IMG/VR virus record: IMGVR_UViG_3300045936_000225
Location: 2,258-66,257 of that record
Length of the DNA stretch: 64,000 bases
Reading direction: 5' to 3' (one strand)
Origin: a virus
The notes beneath the pieces are model-generated. The model searched no databases and was not told where the DNA came from. It saw nothing but the letters and a program-made list of their open reading frames with translations. Every line of letters begins with the position of its first letter. Within the stretch, counting starts at the first letter, position 1. The position numbers and the translations under genes are program-made. Of the stretch, positions 8,927-63,753 are shown piece after piece.

Positions 8927-9841
8927 ATGGCAGTCCCAATGCAATCAGCTGCTTTCCGCAGCATCGTCGAGCCCATCCTCAACCACGTCTATGACGGCAT
9001 CATGGACCAGCGCAAGGACGAATACTTGCAGGTCTTCGAGGTCGTCAAGGGCACGGAACGGATGTACCACGAGGTGCCCGTGCTGGCCGGTTTCGGCCTG
9101 GCTCCGGAGATCCCGGATGGCCGGCCCGTGACCTACCAGCAGAGTGGCACGCTGTTCATCAAGCGTTACGTCTACAAGGTCTACGGCACCGCTTTCGCGC
9201 TGACCAAGATCCTGGTGCAGGATGGCGATCACATCAAGATCGGCTCCATCTTCGCGAAGCAGGGCGCGCAGGCGATGATCGAGACCATGGAGACCAACGC
9301 TGCGAACATCATCAACCGCGCGTACAATGCATCGTACGTCGGTGGTGACAACGTGGCACTCGGCAGCGCCTCGCACCCGATCGTGGGTGGCACCTTCAGC
9401 AACATCCTGGCGACGCCTGCGGCCCTGTCGCAGACCAGCCTGGAACAGCTCCTGACGCAGATCACCAAGGCCGTGGACAACAACGGCAAGAAGATCCGCC
9501 TGGAGAAGAAGAAGCTGGTGGTGTCGGCGGAGAACGAGTACCAGGCCGAAGTGATCACCAAGTCCGTGCTGCGCTCGGGTGTCGCCAACAACGACATCAA
9601 CCCGATCAAGAGCAAGGGCTTGCTGGCCGGCGGCGTGGCGCTCATGACCCGCATGACGAGCGCGACCCAGTGGGGCGTGCTGACGAATGCCCAGGAAGGC
9701 ATGCAGTACGTGTGGCGCCAGAAGCAGGAGAAGCGTATGGAGGGTGACTTCGAAACCAACTCCATGCGTTACGCCTTCGACGAACGCTACGACTTCGGCT
9801 GGGTCAACCCGCGCGCGTTCTTCAGCACGGCTGGCCTGTAG
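8927..9841 (+). CDS. major capsid protein
   Basis: 304 aa with a strong AAGGGAGG Shine-Dalgarno. It follows the decoration gene and is followed by a strong hairpin terminator. Confidence 0.6.
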   Translation: MAVPMQSAAFRSIVEPILNHVYDGIMDQRKDEYLQVFEVVKGTERMYHEVPVLAGFGLAPEIPDGRPVTYQQSGTLFIKRYVYKVYGTAFALTKILVQDGDHIKIGSIFAKQGAQAMIETMETNAANIINRAYNASYVGGDNVALGSASHPIVGGTFSNILATPAALSQTSLEQLLTQITKAVDNNGKKIRLEKKKLVVSAENEYQAEVITKSVLRSGVANNDINPIKSKGLLAGGVALMTRMTSATQWGVLTNAQEGMQYVWRQKQEKRMEGDFETNSMRYAFDERYDFGWVNPRAFFSTAGL

Positions 9842-9878
9842 TCAACCTCGACCCGTCGAGGCCTGATTACCTGACGGT

Positions 9879-9910
9879 GATCCTCCGGGGGTGCTGCCCT
9901 CCGGAGGATC
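9879..9910 (+). terminator. stem-loop after the capsid gene (10-13 bp GC-rich stem)
   Basis: gatcctccgggg-gtgctg-ccctccggaggatc, followed by agattct. The hairpin reads on both strands. Confidence 0.55.
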
Positions 9911-9984
9911 AGATTCTAGCAGCAAACTCGCCCCAGATGAAGAATGGGGCATCAACGGCCCGATGAAAAGGGCAGGAGTCTGAA

Positions 9985-10725
9985 ATGGGTCTTCTCGACA
10001 ACAGCATCACACAGCTTCCGTTTGGCGTGAGCGATCAGGGCCAGTCCGCCCCGCTCGGCCAGATTCCCTTCCCCACCAAGCCGTTCGTGGACTTCGCGAC
10101 GCAGCTCGACGAGTTCAACACGCTGCCGGTCGACGACGTCGACTACGCCATCACTCTGGCGGCCACCGGCGCGTTCACGATGAACACGACCATCGCCAAT
10201 GGCTGGCTGAACATCGCCACTCCTGCAGCCGCAGACGGCGTGACCCTGCTGGGCCTGGCAGCCTTCCGCTTCCAGAAGGGCGCACTGCCTTCCACCGGCG
10301 GCAAGAAGCTCGCAGCGCGCTTCAAGTTCCGCTTCGGCACCACGGCCTACCTCGCCACGATCCTGGGCATCGGCCTGGCCAATGCAGCTGCTGTCACCGC
10401 TGGCGGCATCACGGACGGCATCGTACTGACCAAGGCCGACGCATCGGCGAATCTGGTCCTCTCGATCCGCTCCGGCAGTGCCACCATCGACTCGGCGACG
10501 ATCGGCACGGCATCGAGCGCCGGCGACATCACCCTGGACCTGTACTACGATGGCGGTGATCGCCTGTACTACGGCACCAGCGGAACCGGGTATGCTGGCT
10601 ACCTGACGATGACCACCGCTCCCACCGGCGTGGTGCGTCCCTTCGTCATGCAGACCGGCGGCGCTCTCGCAGGTGCGACCACGGTGTCGATCCTCGACAC
10701 GCTGTTCGTTTCCAGCGAGCGGTAA
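9985..10725 (+). CDS. structural protein (G/A/T-rich beta protein)
   Basis: GGCAGGAG Shine-Dalgarno. Structural-protein-like composition. Confidence 0.5.
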   Translation: MGLLDNSITQLPFGVSDQGQSAPLGQIPFPTKPFVDFATQLDEFNTLPVDDVDYAITLAATGAFTMNTTIANGWLNIATPAAADGVTLLGLAAFRFQKGALPSTGGKKLAARFKFRFGTTAYLATILGIGLANAAAVTAGGITDGIVLTKADASANLVLSIRSGSATIDSATIGTASSAGDITLDLYYDGGDRLYYGTSGTGYAGYLTMTTAPTGVVRPFVMQTGGALAGATTVSILDTLFVSSER

Positions 10726-48296: not shown

Positions 48297-48731
48297 TTAC
48301 TTCCTCTGCGGAGGTTTCCGCATCTTCATCACGAAACGTCGAATTCGCTCCAACTCGTCCAGGTACTGCGTGTGCTTGACGTCGCAGAAGAAGAAATCGT
48401 CCGCACACTCTATTATATACCAACAGGCCGCAACTACCTTACTTGCTTCCTGTGCGCGCCCAACGATACTGGCGAGTTGGACCTTAATCGGCTGAGGGAA
48501 GTCGCGCTCCGCGAATTCGGCGCAAACCTCACCGATCGTCTTGATGTAGTGAGCAAGCGCCTCGACCTTGAGAAACTTGCAGTTTGGGTCGCCATGCTTG
48601 CGACACTCCGCTTCGAATTCACGAAGCAGATCCTCGTCAAACATGTCCTCGACCTCGACAGGCGTGTCCCGTTCGATGGCCACCTCGATGGCGGCATCAA
48701 CGTAGACTTCTATCGATTCCTTGATGTTCAC
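48297..48731 (-). CDS. hypothetical protein
   Basis: ORF only. Confidence 0.45.
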   Translation of the reverse strand: MNIKESIEVYVDAAIEVAIERDTPVEVEDMFDEDLLREFEAECRKHGDPNCKFLKVEALAHYIKTIGEVCAEFAERDFPQPIKVQLASIVGRAQEASKVVAACWYIIECADDFFFCDVKHTQYLDELERIRRFVMKMRKPPQRK

Positions 48732-50275
48732 TTAAAGTCCCCGCTATCAAAGGGTTCTTCGGTTGACTTGCGCTTGCGGTGAATCACTTCACCTTTGAGC
48801 ACTTCGTTGCGGATCTCTGCCGCAGCCCAAGTGTGCATATGCTCTCCGCCTGGCAAGATGTAGACTGATTCCTGGCCATTCTCGGCGCTGAACTGGACCT
48901 TGTTCTTCGTGGGCTTGGCTTTCGCCATGGACGCTGCGAAGCGCAATTGCTCCGGAGTCATCTTGAAGCCCTCATCTGAATCGAAGGTCTGGCAGATCAT
49001 GAGCCGGAAAACTGAACGTTTGATCGCCCTGGAAGGCCACTCCTTGGCGATGTGAATGGCAGCCACCACATACTCTGGCAGCGCCCTCTCGTGCATCTCA
49101 GCTGTGCCCTTGGATGAAGGTGCACGGCCAGTCGCATCAAAGGCCGAGATATCAATCTCGTTGAGGAACTGGTAAGCTGCTGTCAGGAAATCTGGATTCT
49201 GAAGCGCTGTGTACAGCCGATCGTAGTATTCCCTGCCACCCGGATGCGGCGTCAGAGGATTATCAATCACATACACGCGGCGATCGTTCGGCTCAACTGC
49301 GATGGCACCCGGCTTGTTGGTTGCGCCGATCTTGTGAGCGAAGTTACCGATCGTGAACTGCTCGCCGCCCTTCGGCTCCAGTACGATCATTTCCTCGGTA
49401 ATGAACTGGTGGAAGTTCTCCTTGTTCGAGAACTTCTCGCTCACTTCTTCAGCAAACAGGAAGCGAGCGAACATGCGCCTACGATTGAACTTCTGGGCGT
49501 AGATCTGCTCGAATGTGCCCGTACAGATGACCTGAGCAGGGAACATCCGTTGAAGGAATCTCCCGATCCAGCCGCGCCCAACGCCGTCGTGCGGCGTCGA
49601 ATGAAACAGCAGCCAGTTGACTCGCTCCTCCGGTTTCTGGATTGAGTGAGCCAAGAACTGCAAATGAATGCGAGTCGGCTCGTTCTCCATGCACAGGAAC
49701 TTTAGGTGATCCACGAACATCTTGATGTGTGGAAAAGCGATCTCAGGGGCGAGCTTTTCCTGTAAGGCGTAAGGAGAAGGCTTACAGGAATTGACGCAAG
49801 GTTCAAGGTTGGCGTTGGTGAAGAATGGAAAAGAGTGTGCAGGCGCGAAGTCGTATTTTGTGACAGTTCGTCGAATTGGAGACTGGGACCAGATTGGGAA
49901 CAGCGCCATGAGGCGGAGGCGGTTCGGCGCTCCTTCCGCGTTGTTCGGGTTGTCCCGGTCCCTTGTGACCTTGGATGCCGCGAGGGCATTCTCCATCGCA
50001 GAATACGTGCGAAATAGTCCGGTACGAAGATCAAGGAACTTGTCCGATTCTTCAACATACACGAACCTCTCGTTCATTTCCTGTTCACTGGAGAATATCA
50101 CAGGAAGAGCTGAATCCTTTGCTTCCTCCATCTCCTGATGAAGACGTTCCTCGGCACTAAGTGTGGTGCCTTCGGCGTTGCGTGCCTTCACCTCAATCAT
50201 CCGGACGTATTCCTCGACCGTCGATTCCTTGACGGGACCGTCGTCCCCTAGCAACTCATCAAGTATATCACCCAT
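48728..50275 (-). CDS. replication-associated protein (primase partner; no P-loop seen)
   Basis: 515 aa, ATGA-coupled downstream of the primase. Confidence 0.4.
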   Translation of the reverse strand: MGDILDELLGDDGPVKESTVEEYVRMIEVKARNAEGTTLSAEERLHQEMEEAKDSALPVIFSSEQEMNERFVYVEESDKFLDLRTGLFRTYSAMENALAASKVTRDRDNPNNAEGAPNRLRLMALFPIWSQSPIRRTVTKYDFAPAHSFPFFTNANLEPCVNSCKPSPYALQEKLAPEIAFPHIKMFVDHLKFLCMENEPTRIHLQFLAHSIQKPEERVNWLLFHSTPHDGVGRGWIGRFLQRMFPAQVICTGTFEQIYAQKFNRRRMFARFLFAEEVSEKFSNKENFHQFITEEMIVLEPKGGEQFTIGNFAHKIGATNKPGAIAVEPNDRRVYVIDNPLTPHPGGREYYDRLYTALQNPDFLTAAYQFLNEIDISAFDATGRAPSSKGTAEMHERALPEYVVAAIHIAKEWPSRAIKRSVFRLMICQTFDSDEGFKMTPEQLRFAASMAKAKPTKNKVQFSAENGQESVYILPGGEHMHTWAAAEIRNEVLKGEVIHRKRKSTEEPFDSGDFK

Positions 50276-51258
50276 CAGCGACCCCAGGATTCGTTGGCGA
50301 CGTTGAGATCCTCAACGCAGCGCTCATTTAGCAGCTCGGTTAGGTCAGCCCAGCGCCTCCCTTGGCAGTGGCCGTGGAAGCACTTGAAGGAACCGTAGAA
50401 CCGATTCTCTGCGGCCGGCTCGCGAATGTCAGCGCCGGTTTTATTGCCACCAGTATGTTCATCACCCCATGGACAGACTACTTCGCGCCAGCCACCCAGA
50501 TTAGGCTCGCTCTTGCGCGGAATGACACCCATGGCTCGACAAAGTCGAACAGTCAGATCGAATGCATCCCGACGAGCTGTTAGCTCCTCCTCGGAAATGT
50601 CCTCAGCGATCAATGGCCGCCGATACGTGGCGGCATAGTCAAGCTTCAGCTCCGCGGCGAGGTTCTGCCAGGACCACATCTTGCCGTCCTGCTTATTCCA
50701 GGTCACCCTGAAATCGCCGCCATACTTCGGCTTCGTGTTGCGGAATCCAGGAATGCGCACAACACGGTTCGTGCCCATCATACCTGGATCAATGCCTGCG
50801 GCATACCGATCAACGAATGATCTCTGCAGTGCTTCAAAGGTGCCTTGCGCGCATCCTGGCCGCAGGAGGTACCACCACTGCTGATTGCCGGGAGAGGTCT
50901 CGACAATCCACGTCGGTTCTACATGAGCGAACGTGTCGGGAAAGAGTTTGGCGCTTCCGCTGCTTCCGACGTCGTCGATGACGAACGCTCGAGCTGACTG
51001 GAATAATGCCTTCTGACGTCGAAAACTACCGTCTGGTGCCTTACCGAAGGTGCTGACGCAGACGTAGCCGTTGTGTTGAGTGTCGATCCTGAGCGGCGCA
51101 CCCGGCTTCCAAGGAATGGGGCGCCACCCTCTGTCTGAAGATCCTTCAGGATTGACAGGAATGTCTTGGAGAATGAATCGTTCAATTGGTGAGCATCCGC
51201 CTGTCTTGGCAGCCAGCTGCTCGAGAAATCTTATGGCCAGTGCTTCGTGGCTTTCCAA
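50275..51258 (-). CDS. DNA primase (prim-pol-like N-terminal domain + C-terminal zinc ribbon)
   Basis: AFVIDDVGS (hhhDxD), and CPWGDEHTGG ... FKCFHGHC zinc-ribbon typical of phage/plasmid primases. Confidence 0.55.
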   Translation of the reverse strand: MESHEALAIRFLEQLAAKTGGCSPIERFILQDIPVNPEGSSDRGWRPIPWKPGAPLRIDTQHNGYVCVSTFGKAPDGSFRRQKALFQSARAFVIDDVGSSGSAKLFPDTFAHVEPTWIVETSPGNQQWWYLLRPGCAQGTFEALQRSFVDRYAAGIDPGMMGTNRVVRIPGFRNTKPKYGGDFRVTWNKQDGKMWSWQNLAAELKLDYAATYRRPLIAEDISEEELTARRDAFDLTVRLCRAMGVIPRKSEPNLGGWREVVCPWGDEHTGGNKTGADIREPAAENRFYGSFKCFHGHCQGRRWADLTELLNERCVEDLNVANESWGR

Positions 51259-58789: not shown

Positions 58790-59509
58790 TCACTCTCCAT
58801 TTGCCGCGACATTGCGGCTGCTCAAAGCAAATGAATACTTGTCATACAGGCGCGGCGAGCGCGGACGGCGATCAAGCCATGCGCGCGTGCTAGCCAACGC
58901 TTCACGAATGCGAGCCTGCTCCTTCTTCGCGAGGAGCATAGCGCGGATCTTGCCAGCGATCGTCCAGTCCATACCATTCAGTGACGAGTCACTGGCAATC
59001 ATATGGCGCAGACACGCGGCGATGGACGGGAAGCGCATGAGGCTCGACCCGTCAGTATGGTCTATCACGAGATCAATGCTATGAATACCAGCATCGCTGC
59101 TCGATGATCGACGCTCCAAACCTTCGTCGGGAATCGTATTCGGATCCCACTCAACGATGGGCTTGACCTTGCGGTTCACCCACTTGCCGCCGGTCCAGAC
59201 TTCGACATTGCGCATCTTGCTGAACCGACGCACCTTCTTGCCGTCCGGCTTGACAACGATCTCGCCCTGACCTTCACCCTTGCGAATGGTACTGGGCGCA
59301 CCGCCCGAGTAACGCAGCCCGCTCGCATAACGCAGCAGGCCGTCATTACCCAGGAGATTGAGGCAGCGGTCTTCAAGGAAGGCGCGCTGCTCAGCCGTAC
59401 ACGGTGACGGCACGACGATCTCCATACCGCCATGCCGATTGAACCACGCGGCCAGCACCGATGTCGGCACTGACGCGATCGTGGCCCGAGAAAGAACTAC
59501 TGAACTCAT
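58790..59509 (-). CDS. hypothetical protein
   Basis: ORF only. Confidence 0.5.
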   Translation of the reverse strand: MSSVVLSRATIASVPTSVLAAWFNRHGGMEIVVPSPCTAEQRAFLEDRCLNLLGNDGLLRYASGLRYSGGAPSTIRKGEGQGEIVVKPDGKKVRRFSKMRNVEVWTGGKWVNRKVKPIVEWDPNTIPDEGLERRSSSSDAGIHSIDLVIDHTDGSSLMRFPSIAACLRHMIASDSSLNGMDWTIAGKIRAMLLAKKEQARIREALASTRAWLDRRPRSPRLYDKYSFALSSRNVAANGE

Positions 59510-59658
59510 CGGCGCAGTGAGTCAGCGTGACGCTTCAGCCAGTTGCGCTCGTCGCTGTAGTTCACGACTTTCGGCGCTGGCCAGCCCTTGTTCGTAAAGA
59601 CCCTGCGGAAGAACCGCTTGATCTTGCCGCGCAAGGTGTACGTTGCCATTGCGGTCAT
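59506..59658 (-). CDS. small first gene of the leftward early operon (50 aa); not in ORF track
   Basis: GGAGGG Shine-Dalgarno 8 nt upstream of the ATG. Stop overlaps the next start (ATGA). Confidence 0.35.
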   Translation of the reverse strand: MTAMATYTLRGKIKRFFRRVFTNKGWPAPKVVNYSDERNWLKRHADSLRR

Positions 59659-59857
59659 TGCGTTAACCCTCCAAGGTGCAGAATAAATCTCAACGGCGTA
59701 GTATAGCTCGGCAAGGGCGCAAACGTAAAGGGCCTGCTTGGACGCCAGTAGGATATATTAGAGACGCTTGCACGAGCGTTAGGCGGCTACCGCCCACCCG
59801 CTACGCGTGCAAAGCATTCGCATCTTGGCGCCCGCCGGCCCGTGGGCGTAATAAGGA

Positions 59858-59900
59858 ACGCGCGCCCGCGCGTACTACTCTAATTTAGCGCTGCCGTAAA
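59858..59900 (-). promoter_or_regulatory. leftward copy of GCTTTACGGCA with weak -10 (TAGTAC) overlapping a GC palindrome ACGCGCG-cc-CGCGCGT
   Basis: Lies in the divergent 59.66-60.12 kb control region. Confidence 0.35.
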
Positions 59901-60032
59901 GCGTTTGTTGGACCGGCATATCGCCATCAACGACGACGGCAACACGGCGATCGATGCAATGCGCTGCTATAGGGTCGCTCCATGCTCGTGCGGCGTCGTA
60001 CGCTGCTGTGCGGCAAGGTGCTACAACCACCT

Positions 60033-60088
60033 TTACTTTTGGCGCGCGTGGCGTATACTAGGACGCAGGGTAGCACTCTTGCTACCCC
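60033..60088 (+). promoter_or_regulatory. rightward promoter (CTTTAC - 16 nt - TATACT) followed by inverted repeat GGGTAGC-actctt-GCTACCC
   Basis: Located 35 nt upstream of the AAGGAA Shine-Dalgarno and ATG 60124. Confidence 0.45.
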
Positions 60089-60123
60089 GAATAGAGTTAC
60101 TCACCTCAGCAAGGAATAACAAC

Positions 60124-60339
60124 ATGAGTGAAGCTTCTGTTACGACCAGGATTGATGCGCGCGATAACCTCAGGACGCCAGCCGAGCTGTCGCTCCCGAT
60201 GAATCGCGAACAATCCATCCGGGAGGCCAAGCGCCTCCTCTTCATCGGCCGCATGGACTGGGCCGAGAGCTTCTGCGCGAAGAACGGCCTGGCGCTCGGC
60301 CAGGACGAGTCCGGCAACACCATCGTCATTGAGGAGTGA
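60124..60339 (+). CDS. small early protein
   Basis: AAGGAA Shine-Dalgarno 7 nt upstream. Confidence 0.45.
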   Translation: MSEASVTTRIDARDNLRTPAELSLPMNREQSIREAKRLLFIGRMDWAESFCAKNGLALGQDESGNTIVIEE

Positions 60340-60347
60340 CAGCCACC

Positions 60348-61205
60348 ATGAATCAGCTCGCAATCAACAACTTGACTCCGCTGATGGCATCGCACATCGC
60401 CACTCAGCCCGGCCTCGGTCTCAAGCCGATCAGCCGCGAGTACATCCGCAAGCATCTGCCCGCCATCTACGGCAGGCAGGCGGCCGGGATGTCCCAGGTC
60501 TACACCTACATCAAGACCGGCGCGCTCATCGACGCTCTCGCCGACGAAGGCTGGATCGTCACCTCGGCCTTCCAGCCCAAGCCGCAGAAGCGCGATCCCG
60601 CCACCGTCCAGCACGTTGTCAAGCTCCACCAGAGCAAGGACATTGACCGGCTGCTGTCGGGCGACTGGGCGGAATGCCCGGTGATGATCCTCCACAACTC
60701 TGGCAATGGGCGCAGCAAGCTCCGCGCCTCCTTCGGTGTCTACCGCTGGGCCTGCAGCAACGGCATCGTCGTCGGCAAGACGCTCCGGGCCATCGCCATG
60801 ATCCATCAGGGCTTGTCCAGGGCCGGTGTGGCGGCCCTGATCCAAGAATTCGCGACTGGCAGTGCCGAGGTGAGCGCAATGATGGACCGTATGCGCTCTA
60901 TTGTTCTGAACGAACAACAGAGGACAGCCCTGGCTCGTGAAGCCGTCGCGCTGCGTACTGGGCGCACTCTCGAGGAGGCCGAGCGTGACTTCGATCTCGC
61001 AGGCGTCCTGACCCCTGTCCGCGTTGCTGACTCGGGCCATGACCTCTGGACCACGTTCAACGTCCTCCAGGAGCGCGTGATGCACGGTGCCCTGCCCTTG
61101 CGCACCGGAGGCCGCGGACGCGCTGTTGCTCCCGTGCGCGACACGCTCGGCGGCCACGCCATGAACGAGCAGCTCTGGGGCCTGGCAGAAAGGATGGCAG
61201 CATGA
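60348..61205 (+). CDS. DUF932-like phage/plasmid protein (tentative)
   Basis: GAGGAG Shine-Dalgarno. Motif ILHNSGNGRSKLRASFGVYRWACSNG. Confidence 0.4.
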   Translation: MNQLAINNLTPLMASHIATQPGLGLKPISREYIRKHLPAIYGRQAAGMSQVYTYIKTGALIDALADEGWIVTSAFQPKPQKRDPATVQHVVKLHQSKDIDRLLSGDWAECPVMILHNSGNGRSKLRASFGVYRWACSNGIVVGKTLRAIAMIHQGLSRAGVAALIQEFATGSAEVSAMMDRMRSIVLNEQQRTALAREAVALRTGRTLEEAERDFDLAGVLTPVRVADSGHDLWTTFNVLQERVMHGALPLRTGGRGRAVAPVRDTLGGHAMNEQLWGLAERMAA

Positions 61206-61718
61206 GCAACCTGATCCACTTCCCGAACGGCAACCCCGTTCGGATGAAGAACTGGGAGCTCTTCGACGCCGTCGCGCGTCACCTGCTCACGCAGAACGCG
61301 CAGAGCTGCTCCATCGGGCCGAACGGCGGATGCGCCTATCGCGGCGACCAAGGGCGCAAGTGTGCTGTCGGCTTCATGATCCCCGACGAGCTCATGACTC
61401 CCGACATTGAGGGCGCCAGCATCGAGGGGCCTCGTGACACGAGCGTTGGTAGACAAGGGCATCATAGAGCGCAGAGATACAGAATCAGGATCCGTCGCTG
61501 AATGCTCGCTGTCCGCCGCCCAAGTCGACTTCTTCGCCGGCCTCGTCCTCAAGATGCCGATTCTGCGAACGCTTCAGAATATTCACGACAACGAGCCGGT
61601 TGACATCTGGCCGCAGCAGATCGTGGCGGCGGCGGAGCGGCATGATTTCCGCATCGGCCGCGAGCTCAATCGTCTCATCGCCGAGCGCAAGGGTGAAGTC
61701 ATTCAGGAGGATGAGTGA
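61202..61718 (+). pseudogene. frameshifted paralogue of 57125..57583 (two ORFs, 61202-61501 and 61407-61718, in different frames)
   Basis: The N-terminal half matches in one frame and the C-terminal half in the +1 frame. The shift maps to a GGGG run at ~61425-61428. Confidence 0.5.
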
Positions 61719-62017
61719 TGACAGCAGAATCGCTGCCTGACGTCACGGTGACATTGACTGTCCCGTGCAAGAACATTCGGCATGAGCTGGCCAAGATCTT
61801 CGTTGAGCGAATCAGTCATCAGGTGCTGTCTGTCAAGCAGCGCAACGCACTGGCTCTCGAGTTCGTTCTCGGAGCCGCATGCGCTGCTGCATTGATCTCC
61901 GGTAAGATGTCGCCGGAGTACCAAGCGCTCTCCATCCTTTCCGTATTCGTGGCGATGAACGGATATGAAGAGCTCGTCAAGACTGCCAACGACGTGCGGA
62001 GGGTGCACAATGGCTGA
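61718..62017 (+). CDS. hypothetical protein with hydrophobic segment
   Basis: AGGAGG Shine-Dalgarno. TGATG coupling. Confidence 0.4.
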   Translation: MTAESLPDVTVTLTVPCKNIRHELAKIFVERISHQVLSVKQRNALALEFVLGAACAAALISGKMSPEYQALSILSVFVAMNGYEELVKTANDVRRVHNG

Positions 62018-62312
62018 CTATGTCATCGGTGACAAGATCGTCTGGGGCGACGTTGATGGCCGCAACACTACGCTTCGCGAAGGCGTGGTGACCAAGGTGG
62101 CCGCAAATGGCGATTACGTGTGGGTTGATCGCGAGCACAAGCCTGAGGACTGCATCTACACGAGCTTCTGCTGGCCTGCTGAGTATAAGGAAGAGCTCCT
62201 GCTGGTGATGAAGGAGCGCGCCAGCTTGCGCAAGGCGTTTGATGACTCGATGAAGCTGGTGTACCAGCTGCGCAACAGGGTCCGGAATGAGCGGGATGGC
62301 AGCAAGGTATGA
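62010..62312 (+). CDS. hypothetical protein
   Basis: GGAGGG Shine-Dalgarno. ATGGCTGA overlap. Confidence 0.4.
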   Translation: MADYVIGDKIVWGDVDGRNTTLREGVVTKVAANGDYVWVDREHKPEDCIYTSFCWPAEYKEELLLVMKERASLRKAFDDSMKLVYQLRNRVRNERDGSKV

Positions 62313-62671
62313 GCGCATGGTGGCGAGCTCTGCTCAGGCTTCAGGAGGCGATCGGTAGATCTGACTTGAGGCGCGAAAGGATTAGGCTGATGAAGCCTAA
62401 TCCTGCCGCAGCTCTAGAAGCGCTGGCAGTGTATGATGAGCGCAGGTACAAGCTGATGTCGCTTCTGACGTTGCTGAGACCGCCACCAGCGCTGAGCCGC
62501 AAAGATGTGAAGACAGCGTCGCAACTGAAGCGTGTGCGTGAGCTTGACGATGAAGCTATGCGCAAGTTTCAGCGTGAAGTGAGGACGAACGCTATTGACG
62601 CCAAAATCCTCGTTGCACGCAAGTTGATGGATGAGGCATGGGCTGCATACCTGAGCGCACGCGATGGATGA
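62309..62671 (+). CDS. hypothetical protein
   Basis: ATGA overlap. Confidence 0.45.
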   Translation: MSAWWRALLRLQEAIGRSDLRRERIRLMKPNPAAALEALAVYDERRYKLMSLLTLLRPPPALSRKDVKTASQLKRVRELDDEAMRKFQREVRTNAIDAKILVARKLMDEAWAAYLSARDG

Positions 62672-62710
62672 TTGATCGTATCTGGTCGAGCGATGCTCAA
62701 TGATGTGTCG

Positions 62711-62737
62711 AGGCCGCGCCAGCGATGGTTGCGGCCT
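62711..62737 (+). terminator. hairpin after the last rightward gene (aggccgc ... gcggcct)
   Basis: 7-bp stem with a 13-nt loop. Weak U-tract. Confidence 0.3.
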
Positions 62738-62754
62738 TGTCATTGGTAGCTTCC

Positions 62755-63087
62755 TAACCCCGTAGCATTGAGTTCCGGGCGCACGTAACCCTGTCAGCTA
62801 TTCTGTTGCACTGGCCGCAAAACCCTGTGGTACGAGGTTACTCCTGACTTCTAGTAGTTACACGTAAGTCCTTGATTTACTTAGCTTTTATAGTCTTCCT
62901 AACCCTGTTAACCCTGTTAAGGATAGATTCTAAAACCTTTTCGGAGTGAAAAAAAAGGGTGGCGGTAAGGCCCCCTACGGGGTTAGGGTTACGGTATTAT
63001 GACGAGGTTATGAAACGCTGATTTAGAATGATTTGTAACCCTGTAGTAACCCTGTCAGCCTGCGGCTGGGCCTCAGTCTAACCCTGT
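62755..63087. repeat. iteron array: about 10 copies of TAACCCTGT, direct and inverted, with an A8 tract and AT-rich spacers
   Basis: Perfect copies at 62786, 62900, 62909, 63036, 63047, 63079. Variant copies at 62755 and 62820. Inverted copies at 62965-62990. Confidence 0.8.
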
Positions 63088-63173
63088 CACGTTTTACGAC
63101 GCGCATCAGCATTCGCGCGGCTCTCACAGCGCGCGTAAACCCGCCCCACGGTAGGCCCATAGAATGCGCCTAC

Positions 63174-63257
63174 AACGCCTAGCATCGGTTATAGGCGGAC
63201 TTGCGTCGCCCTAGGGCTAACGCCTAGGGGTAGGCGTTGCTCGGCTAATAGGCGTTG
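63174..63257. repeat. second repeat family TAGGCGTTG (x3, one inverted) with a CCCTAGGG palindrome
   Basis: Copies at 63174-63182 (inverted), 63231-63239 and 63249-63257. Confidence 0.6.
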
Positions 63258-63277
63258 TACGACGCGCCACGACAGCG

Positions 63278-63571
63278 TCAGTCAAAGCGAGGACGCATGT
63301 AGTCGCGTCCGTGAATCGCTAGTTGACCTTGAACATAATCTCGACGATCGTCGACCGTTAAGATGAGCTTGCCTCTCAATATGCCTAGATTGCATCTGCG
63401 ACATGCAGGAAATGTGATCGTAGATCGAGGTGCCCAATTCTTTGGAGGTACGTGATCTTTGGTCGTGGCAGGCTCATCGCAATAGCTGCATCGGGCGCAG
63501 TGCTTGGCTCGAAGGGATCGGATTGTCATGTTCATAGCGTCTATTATCGCTCTTATGGCAGCTGACGTCAA
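63278..63571 (-). CDS. HNH endonuclease
   Basis: HCARCSYCDEPATTKDHVPPK ... CRRCN (Cys4 + His HNH motif). Confidence 0.6.
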   Translation of the reverse strand: MTSAAIRAIIDAMNMTIRSLRAKHCARCSYCDEPATTKDHVPPKNWAPRSTITFPACRRCNLGILRGKLILTVDDRRDYVQGQLAIHGRDYMRPRFD

Positions 63572-63753
63572 GCCTGCCGCGCGCTGCCATGTTAAAGCAC
63601 CTTTGCTTCCGCATCATGTTAAATGGCAACCGAGCGCAGTTCTGCTGGCGTCGGTCGTATCTCGTTGATGTGACACTCGAAGCACACGCCCAGGATCGGA
63701 TTATCGCTTCTTGCACTAGGCAGCGCAGCGCTCAACCCTTCGTCGTTAGAGGA

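Follow-up and report, generated by a model that had tools for sequence, protein, structure and literature searches.

A repeat cluster that changes with the phage helicase across four related lineages is a probable replication origin

Introduction

The Rep proteins of the staphylococcal pathogenicity islands (SaPIs) are self-loading helicases of superfamily 3 (SF3), whose C-terminal winged-helix domain reads 6–12 short iterons (PMC9371898). In the SaPI origin, an AT-rich centre has two or more iterons to either side, in opposite orientations; a primase gene stands beside rep or, in SaPI5, is fused with it, and each Rep is described as recognizing its own iterons (PMC9371898). The sites at which RepB' of RSF1010 primes are a pair of 40-nt inverted repeats within oriV, named ssiA and ssiB (PMC8567376). 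Here we describe a 64,000-nucleotide stretch of viral DNA (positions 2,258 to 66,257 of the IMG/VR record IMGVR_UViG_3300045936_000225, hereafter the window), which makes up most of a 66,369-bp phage genome contig and carries a cluster of 9-bp repeats at 62.75–63.1 kb. Judging from sequence comparisons, this cluster is probably the replication origin of the phage. An origin is the most likely reading because, in a comparison of four related phages, the repeat covaries with the predicted DNA-binding tail of the phage helicase and does not covary with any packaging-side protein.

The SaPI Rep/ori system is the closest described design, and the window appears to share its features except for the position of the origin. 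The apparent likeness comprises opposed iterons around an AT-rich centre, an SF3 helicase, an adjacent primase gene and putative cognate pairs of iteron and helicase. The differences are that the window iterons are 9-mers rather than the 5–6-mers of the SaPIs, that the candidate origin lies 12.5 kb from the helicase gene instead of directly downstream of rep, and that the window adds a box with the consensus for integration host factor (IHF), a conserved GC-rich block and a RepB-type primase. Furthermore, the window element is a ~66-kb phage with its own DNA polymerase III (Pol III) alpha, whereas SaPIs are satellites.

Other described systems share parts of this design. Alpha of satellite phage P4 is a fused primase-helicase, of the DUF5906/D5-like class, that binds repeated octamers via its C-terminal domain. 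Some of its binding sites (crr) can be kilobases away from its gene, and the origin abuts rep in P4-type systems. The window helicase belongs to the same class and, by analogy, may also read its repeats via a C-terminal domain, although the iteron sequence is unrelated. In the lambdoid O/ori system and in iteron plasmids such as pSC101 and R6K, iterons stand beside AT-rich DNA, frequently together with a site for IHF, and relatives exchange initiator specificity and iterons as a module. These initiators are not helicases and recruit the host DnaB, and the lambda origin lies inside the O gene; the initiator proposed for the window is, in contrast, itself a helicase. Repeated protein-binding elements also flank an IHF site at lambda cosB, which lies by the packaging genes and adjoins and covaries with that of the small terminase, whereas the window repeats covary with the helicase and stand apart from the late operon. 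The locus is in our reading a known kind of origin and not a new mechanism.

Results

Opposed iterons flank the most AT-rich part of the window

Seven exact copies of AACCCTGT are present in the window, all on the plus strand between 62787 and 63087, where 0.76 would be expected by chance; none of 100 shuffles reached seven copies. When up to one mismatch is allowed, TAACCCTGT occurs at eight plus-strand positions (62755, 62786, 62820, 62900, 62909, 63036, 63047 and 63079) and at one on the minus strand (62977). Further degenerate minus-strand copies, TAACCCTAA at 62983–62991 and ACGAGGTTA (= TAACCTCGT) at 62832 and 63002, are retained in a relative. In total, about 12 sites lie between 62755 and 63087, with tandem periods of 9 bp (62900/62909) and 11 bp (63036/63047), and the array is unique within the window. 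An earlier note on this DNA, made from the letters alone, had described about ten copies of a 9-mer in both orientations with 9–11 bp tandem spacing, along with an A8 tract and AT-rich spacers, and our counts bear this out.

The forward pair at 62900/62909 opposes the reverse pair at 62977/62983 over a 59-bp AT-rich core. GC content is 34–38% at 62850–62950 and 36% at 63000–63050 in a genome of ~58%, and the lowest-GC 100 bp in the whole 64 kb are those starting at 62855. The repeats flank not only the most AT-rich 100 bp but also the A8 tract and a perfect IHF-consensus box (Table 1). The box is part of a conserved 18-mer, the reverse complement of which fits what we take to be the IHF consensus, a sequence with just two occurrences in the 64 kb. 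Opposed iterons around an AT-rich core, together with an IHF box, is the architecture of an iteron origin.

The array lies in a convergent region, with the rightward operon of small genes stopping at 62671 and leftward open reading frames (ORFs) at 63278. No promoter-like site was found inside the region, and searches of its DNA against cultured phages gave no match. On a crude ORF map, filtered at a cut-off of 0.60 for GC content at third codon positions (GC3), no other ORF-poor gap of the window is as large, in keeping with the earlier description of the region as the only large non-coding one. Cumulative GC skew is lowest at ~61.6 kb, near the array, and highest at 31 kb. This minimum agrees weakly with an origin at the array, since gene orientation confounds the measure.

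One scaffold carries two repeat types

Relatives of the window were found by protein look-ups and form three lineages, all of them metagenomic. Lineage A is represented by contigs L099/L100 for the origin region and L122/L123 for the helicase region (JGI 3300018481, ENA ERZ27251452), lineage B by a single 64.7-kb Logan contig (L094/L097), and lineage C by L209 for the origin region and L124 for the helicase region (JGI 3300086547). A metagenome scan with the p239 alignment returned no additional contig. All three lineages have a non-coding region at the same position and with the same order of elements as the window, namely a terminator hairpin, scattered repeats, the 18-mer, a tandem pair, an AT-rich core, inverted repeats and a GC-rich block. 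The 18-mer (CAYGTAAGTCCTTGATTT) is identical in lineages A and B, and the lineage C variant, AATCAATAACTTA, differs at N positions only.

Within this scaffold the repeat itself comes in two types. Lineage A has TAACCCTGT, as in the window, and the reverse-iteron block CCCCCTACGGGGTTAGGGTTACGG is identical in the two. Lineages B and C instead have GACCCATTAG at equivalent positions, with about 12 GACCC(A/G)T(T/A)AG sites in both orientations. When the tandem-pair position is aligned, lineage A reads TAACCCCGTTAACCCTGT, lineage B GACCCATTAGACCCATTAGACC and lineage C GACCCATTAGACCCAATAGACCCATAG, and the stretch corresponding to the left group in lineage B holds copies of GGACCCGTAAG and ATGGGTCC. 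Both motifs have an ACCC core and a 9-bp tandem period.

The repeat type follows the helicase

We compared 12 orthologous proteins over all available lineage pairs, and only the 515-aa SF3 helicase follows the iteron type. Its identity is 84% between the window and lineage A (type 1) and 82% between lineages B and C (type 2), versus 60–61% in all four cross-type pairs. The divergence is strongest in the C-terminal domain: residues 399–475 are 82–88% identical within a type and 42–45% across types, while the corresponding figures for the ATPase core are 94% and 72–74%. For lineage C the repeat type was a prediction: its helicase was assigned to type 2 ahead of any reading of its origin contig, and the repeats then matched. 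Background genes are approximately equidistant, with lineage A if anything nearest to lineage C (p313 83%, ThyX 78%, carbamoyltransferase 78% and late108 84%).

The RepB-type primase is encoded by the gene adjoining that of the helicase, and its identity is 87.9–89.2% within types and 85–90% across them. Because it does not covary with the repeat type, the primase is not the specificity factor. The earlier note had suggested an origin perhaps recognized by the primase or the 515-aa protein; the origin and the 515-aa protein fit these data, and the primase does not. Among the ORFs upstream of the large-terminase gene (TerL) that the lineages have in common, none tracks the iteron type (late108, late114 and late546; a 410-aa ORF of lineage B was left out). 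Namely, late114, which is the small-terminase (TerS) candidate by position, is 81% identical between B and C, 92.5% between A and C and 81% between A and B, and late546 is 45% identical between B and C, 38% between the window and B and 45% between the window and C.

Profile comparison matched the helicase core to the solved chains 6k9c/6k9e, deposited as 'Primase' (E = 1.5e-6), and the primase weakly to RSF1010 RepB' (3h20/3h25). As the full-length helicase model was poor (predicted local distance difference test, pLDDT, of 58), the fold search used a separate AlphaFold (AF2) model of residues 385–515, with a pLDDT of 78.5 and a predicted TM-score (pTM) of 0.71. Its elements follow the order helix, strand, helix, helix and beta wing, and the helix that would serve for recognition reads PEQLRFAASMAK in type 1 and PDQVRF(V/I)SSITR in type 2. 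Foldseek gave no significant match for this model (best E = 0.05), and the top of its list consists mostly of winged-helix DNA binders, including PadR, STIV F93, forkhead, RTP, Cdt1 and Orc1/Cdc6. The modeled fold suggests that the C-terminal domain is likely a winged helix.

Table 1. Elements of the candidate origin and the genes proposed to act on it, in window coordinates.
Feature	Coordinates	Strand	Remarks
GC-rich hairpin GAGGCCGC...GCGGCCTT	62706–62742	+	Inverted repeat; terminator of the rightward early operon and left border of the non-coding region; kept in lineages A, B and C
Left iteron group	62755–62840	both	TAACCCCGT 62755(+), TAACCCTGT 62786(+), AAACCCTGT 62820(+), degenerate ACGAGGTTA 62832(-)
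Conserved 18-mer CACGTAAGTCCTTGATTT	62861–62878	+	Reverse complement AATCAAGGACTTA (62865–62877) fits the presumed IHF consensus WATCAANNNNTTR
Tandem pair TAACCCTGT TAACCCTGT	62900–62917	+	9-bp period, immediately right of the IHF box
AT-rich core with A8 tract (62949–62956)	62918–62976		Between inward-facing iterons; candidate DNA-unwinding element
Reverse iterons	62977–63010	-	ACGGGGTTA 62977, overlapping TTAGGGTTA 62983, degenerate ACGAGGTTA 63002
Second AT-rich spacer	63011–63035		Between outward-facing iteron groups; GC 36% at 63000–63049
Right iteron group	63036–63087	+	TAACCCTGT at 63036, 63047 (11-bp spacing) and 63079
GC-rich right block	63125–63270		TAGGCGTTG at 63173(-), 63231(+) and 63249(+), exact; 63218(-) with one mismatch
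515-aa SF3 helicase gene (DUF5906)	48728–50275	-	Pfam DUF5906, E = 1.9e-9; putative trans-acting initiator
Codons of helicase residues 399–475	48851–49081	-	Predicted winged-helix C-terminal domain; putative iteron reader
RepB-type primase gene	50275–51258	-	Adjoins the helicase gene; Pfam RepB_primase PF16793, E = 3.2e-14

A model for initiation and the points that weigh against it

We propose that the SF3 helicase would recognize the TAACCCTGT iterons via its C-terminal winged-helix domain and assemble on the opposed iteron groups. A host IHF-type protein would bend the DNA at the conserved AATCAAGGACTTA box, and the AT-rich core with its A8 tract, located between the iteron groups, would melt. 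The RepB-type primase and the phage Pol III alpha would then begin synthesis, with the primase probably priming at the opened origin. Origins are seldom annotated in uncultured phages, and this locus offers a concrete, testable pair of origin and initiator. It also appears to be a natural specificity swap, in which one scaffold is combined with two iteron 'addresses' and two helicase C-terminal types, and it therefore defines residues and bases to exchange experimentally.

Several observations weigh against an origin read by the helicase. The array is ~12.5 kb from the helicase gene, with the same separation in lineage B. The helicase differs between types along its whole gene, beyond the C-terminal domain, and the Foldseek scores behind the winged-helix assignment are weak. 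A 144-aa ORF beside the helicase gene tracks the repeat type loosely (71% between the window and A and 64% between B and C, versus 60–67%). Two iteron types were sampled, which is effectively a single switch event, and in lineages A and C the origin and helicase contigs are linked by shared sample identifiers and consistent relatedness rather than by one continuous contig. Because TerS was not positively identified, the absence of tracking among packaging proteins covers ORFs at the canonical position. Finally, similar arrays lie 1–2 kb upstream of TerL in many distant relatives, which is also what would be expected of a packaging site.

Alternative explanations

An IncQ/RSF1010-like composite origin would refine the proposed origin rather than compete with it. 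Here, the left half would open the DNA and the GC-rich right half would provide single-strand initiation (ssi) sites for the RepB-type primase. The iterons and the AT-rich stretch are present, a RepB_primase-family gene adjoins the helicase gene, and the right block and the primase (85–90%) are both conserved in the four lineages, the backbone of the block being kept irrespective of iteron type. A priming role for the right block is attractive because RSF1010 RepB' primes on ssiA and ssiB inside oriV (PMC8567376). However, no pair of conserved hairpins was found in the block: those at 63151–63173 and 63219–63238 in the window are not retained across the four lineages. Its folding z-scores of −1.6 and −2.45 are not clearly better than shuffles, and an unfavourable alifold covariation term of +1.34 leaves a common structure unsupported. 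We consider such a composite unlikely.

Folding and covariation give no support to ssi hairpins or to a structured RNA in this block, and Rfam and tRNA scans of the region gave no match. The block does contain the second repeat family reported previously, with three copies of TAGGCGTTG and the palindrome CCCTAGGG (63209–63216), to which we add one copy with a single mismatch.

A broader claim would be that the locus is a hybrid origin not yet described in phages. Such an origin would combine SaPI/P4-style iterons and an SF3 helicase with an IncQ-style priming block and a RepB-type primase, would lie far from both genes, and would be built around a scaffold with the IHF box, common to a large group of phages, most of them uncultured, in which the iteron 'address' alone is swapped. 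We regard this, too, as an unlikely description of the locus.

The earlier note had also offered a pac or cos site. In this case, the small terminase would bind the repeats and IHF would bend them, on the pattern of lambda cosB (R3-I1-R2-R1), and an IHF box amid repeats does fit the cosB design. In relatives, the late operon and TerL follow the array at a distance of a few kb (TerL is ~5.4 kb away in lineage B), in agreement with what the note had guessed from a circular context. Comparable arrays precede TerL in many TerL-related contigs, as mentioned above, and in one subgroup of Oxalobacteraceae prophages an identical TAACCCTGT tandem is located directly upstream of the gene at the TerS position. 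Against this, late114 is nearly the same in lineages A and C despite their differing repeats, and late546 is strongly diverged between B and C despite their matching repeats; none of the ORFs from the late-operon start up to TerL follows the repeat type. The array is neither next to nor within a small-terminase gene, as a minus-strand gene for an 86–89-aa protein and a second, repeat-rich non-coding region of ~850 bp separate it from the first late ORFs in the relatives. An AT-rich unwinding core between opposed repeats is unneeded for a pac site but needed for an origin.

Caulobacter phage RW provides a further comparison. TerL (50% identity), portal and capsid are common to RW and the window, whereas the replication proteins are all missing from RW, and its genome nowhere shows an array or box of this kind, so that the packaging module is present without the array. 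We judge a packaging-initiation site to be quite improbable, and the array should not serve as a packaging-site marker. RW (MK929790.1; L125/L093) also has an exact 2,940-bp duplication at 1–2940 and 59423–62362. Its start inside the TerL gene makes it uninformative on packaging ends and suggests an assembly overlap, not a true terminal repeat.

That the array binds another protein in a non-replicative role, whether to switch from early to late expression, as an operator or silencer, or as a partition site like P1 parS (also an IHF site flanked by repeats), is very unlikely even though the conserved right block with its own inverted repeats suggests a second binding factor, because both flanking transcription units end in this convergent region with no promoter-like site found, no ParA, ParB, integrase or repressor domains occur among the ORFs scanned with Pfam (some small ORFs were unscanned), and the sole protein that tracks the repeats is the helicase.

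Distribution of the IHF-like box

The exact 18-mer containing the IHF-like box is found in 21 IMG/VR contigs with GC contents from 34% to 64%. In many of these it sits amid quite different iterons (TGTTACAATGTTA, GTTGTTCAC and TAATGTTCC), and several encode TerL and portal proteins that are 28–42% identical to those of the window. Further TerL-related contigs have near-match boxes with iterons and long A/T runs ~1–6 kb upstream of TerL, and several long loci have clusters of 8-mer repeats ~0.8–2 kb upstream of it. Because the box recurs amid different iterons in TerL-related contigs, the scaffold appears to be old and widespread, with the iterons as its variable part. It could be of use for finding origins across a wide range of related viral contigs. 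Profile scans of the ORFs near IHF-box arrays in the distant contigs did not find an initiator, and two loci, neither of them with the box, came out of a scan of viral contigs with the helicase profile.

Some occurrences of the box have other surroundings. In L110 (~2084) and L118 (~811) the exact 18-mer stands beside a tRNA-like sequence with a T-arm and CCA end, and not beside iterons. In five TerL-related IMG/VR contigs (L143 ~1081, L144 ~5376, L146 ~5370, L152 ~1216 and L158 ~354), a palindrome AATGA(G/T)AATGATTCT follows an IHF-like box within ~20 bp, and a sixth (L159 ~3076) has the form AATGATAATCATTCTC after its box. This palindrome resembles what we take to be the Fur-box consensus; the window has none of this kind.

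The 9-mer in Oxalobacteraceae prophages

An exact 18-mer, TAACCCTGTTAACCCTGT, is found in 43 IMG/VR contigs and in prophages of Massilia, Duganella, Pseudoduganella and Undibacterium (loci L001–L043, for example L012 4378–4501 and L022 1404–1525, as well as L061, L072, L073 and L088). The prophages are ~40–45 kb and usually have two inverted tandems ~100 bp apart. In about 25 contigs the array follows a DUF5906 (P4-alpha-like) primase-helicase gene by ~90–110 bp, and in 9 the site is instead directly upstream of the TerS-position gene. The helicase cores of these prophages are 26% identical to that of the window, and no homology was detectable between the C-terminal domains (hhalign probability 0.2).

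These contigs had been considered as independent support for the link between repeat and helicase. They were downgraded, as several of the hits are chance matches in coding DNA, the C-terminal domains are not detectably related and one subgroup has the site upstream of the TerS-position gene. Given this position, the low identity of the helicase cores and the lack of detectable homology in the C-terminal domains, the 9-mer common to the window and the prophages may be a product of coincidence or convergence. The sharing may simply be an unexplained coincidence; another possibility is that the same TAACCCTGT address arose in these unrelated prophages through convergence or through transfer of an origin/cos cassette.

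Genome layout and neighbouring ORFs

The late and structural genes of the phage are on the plus strand at 1–31 kb, and a leftward replication block at 31–59.5 kb encodes Pol III alpha, an SNF2 helicase, an exonuclease, a ligase, SSB, ThyX, the RepB-type primase and the DUF5906 SF3 helicase. The ~2.4 kb beyond the window were examined through the relatives. Terminase genes had been placed at the window start, and TerL is indeed encoded at 521–2101. The preceding plus-strand ORF (2–517, listed also as 41–517) is open at the window edge and corresponds to the C-terminal third of a ~530–550-aa protein in the relatives (546 aa in lineage B), which makes the TerS label unfounded. It gave no TerS-family match, its sole Pfam hit being a sub-threshold one to a scaffold protein (19.7 bits versus a cutoff of 35), and no profile identified a TerS. 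The 546-aa-type protein is 38–45% identical between lineages, compared with 87–91% for the adjacent TerL. In lineage B, an extra 410-aa ORF (L097 15565–16797) stands between the 546-aa ORF and TerL; it has no family match and no counterpart in the window or lineage C.

The neighbouring 'HNH' ORF (63278–63571, minus strand), which had been called an endonuclease gene and had supported the packaging reading, is poorly supported. It carries the motif CxxC...DH...CxxCN but has a weak PHROG match (E = 0.006) and no Pfam hit, falls below the GC3 cut-off and has no counterpart in lineage A, B or C. In appearance it is a mobile nuclease gene that was inserted recently.

The second non-coding region lies just past the window end and closer to the late operon (L097 12375–13246, L099 5725–6552 and L209 ~9152–10000). 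Its repeats are lineage-specific, for example CGTATCGTAT and GGGCTGCTACCG in lineage B and CATACAGTACGCAAGG in lineage A, and it is a better candidate for a late promoter or pac site than the array studied here. Downstream of the gene for the 86–89-aa protein, all four lineages also have a block of ~30 nt, TCGAAGCA(C/G)ACGC(C/G)CAGGATCGGATTATC, at 63676–63704 in the window, ~12015–12045 in L097, ~5095–5125 in L099 and ~10765–10795 in L209. Its surroundings are poorly conserved, and the block might be part of a very small ORF or a regulatory site.

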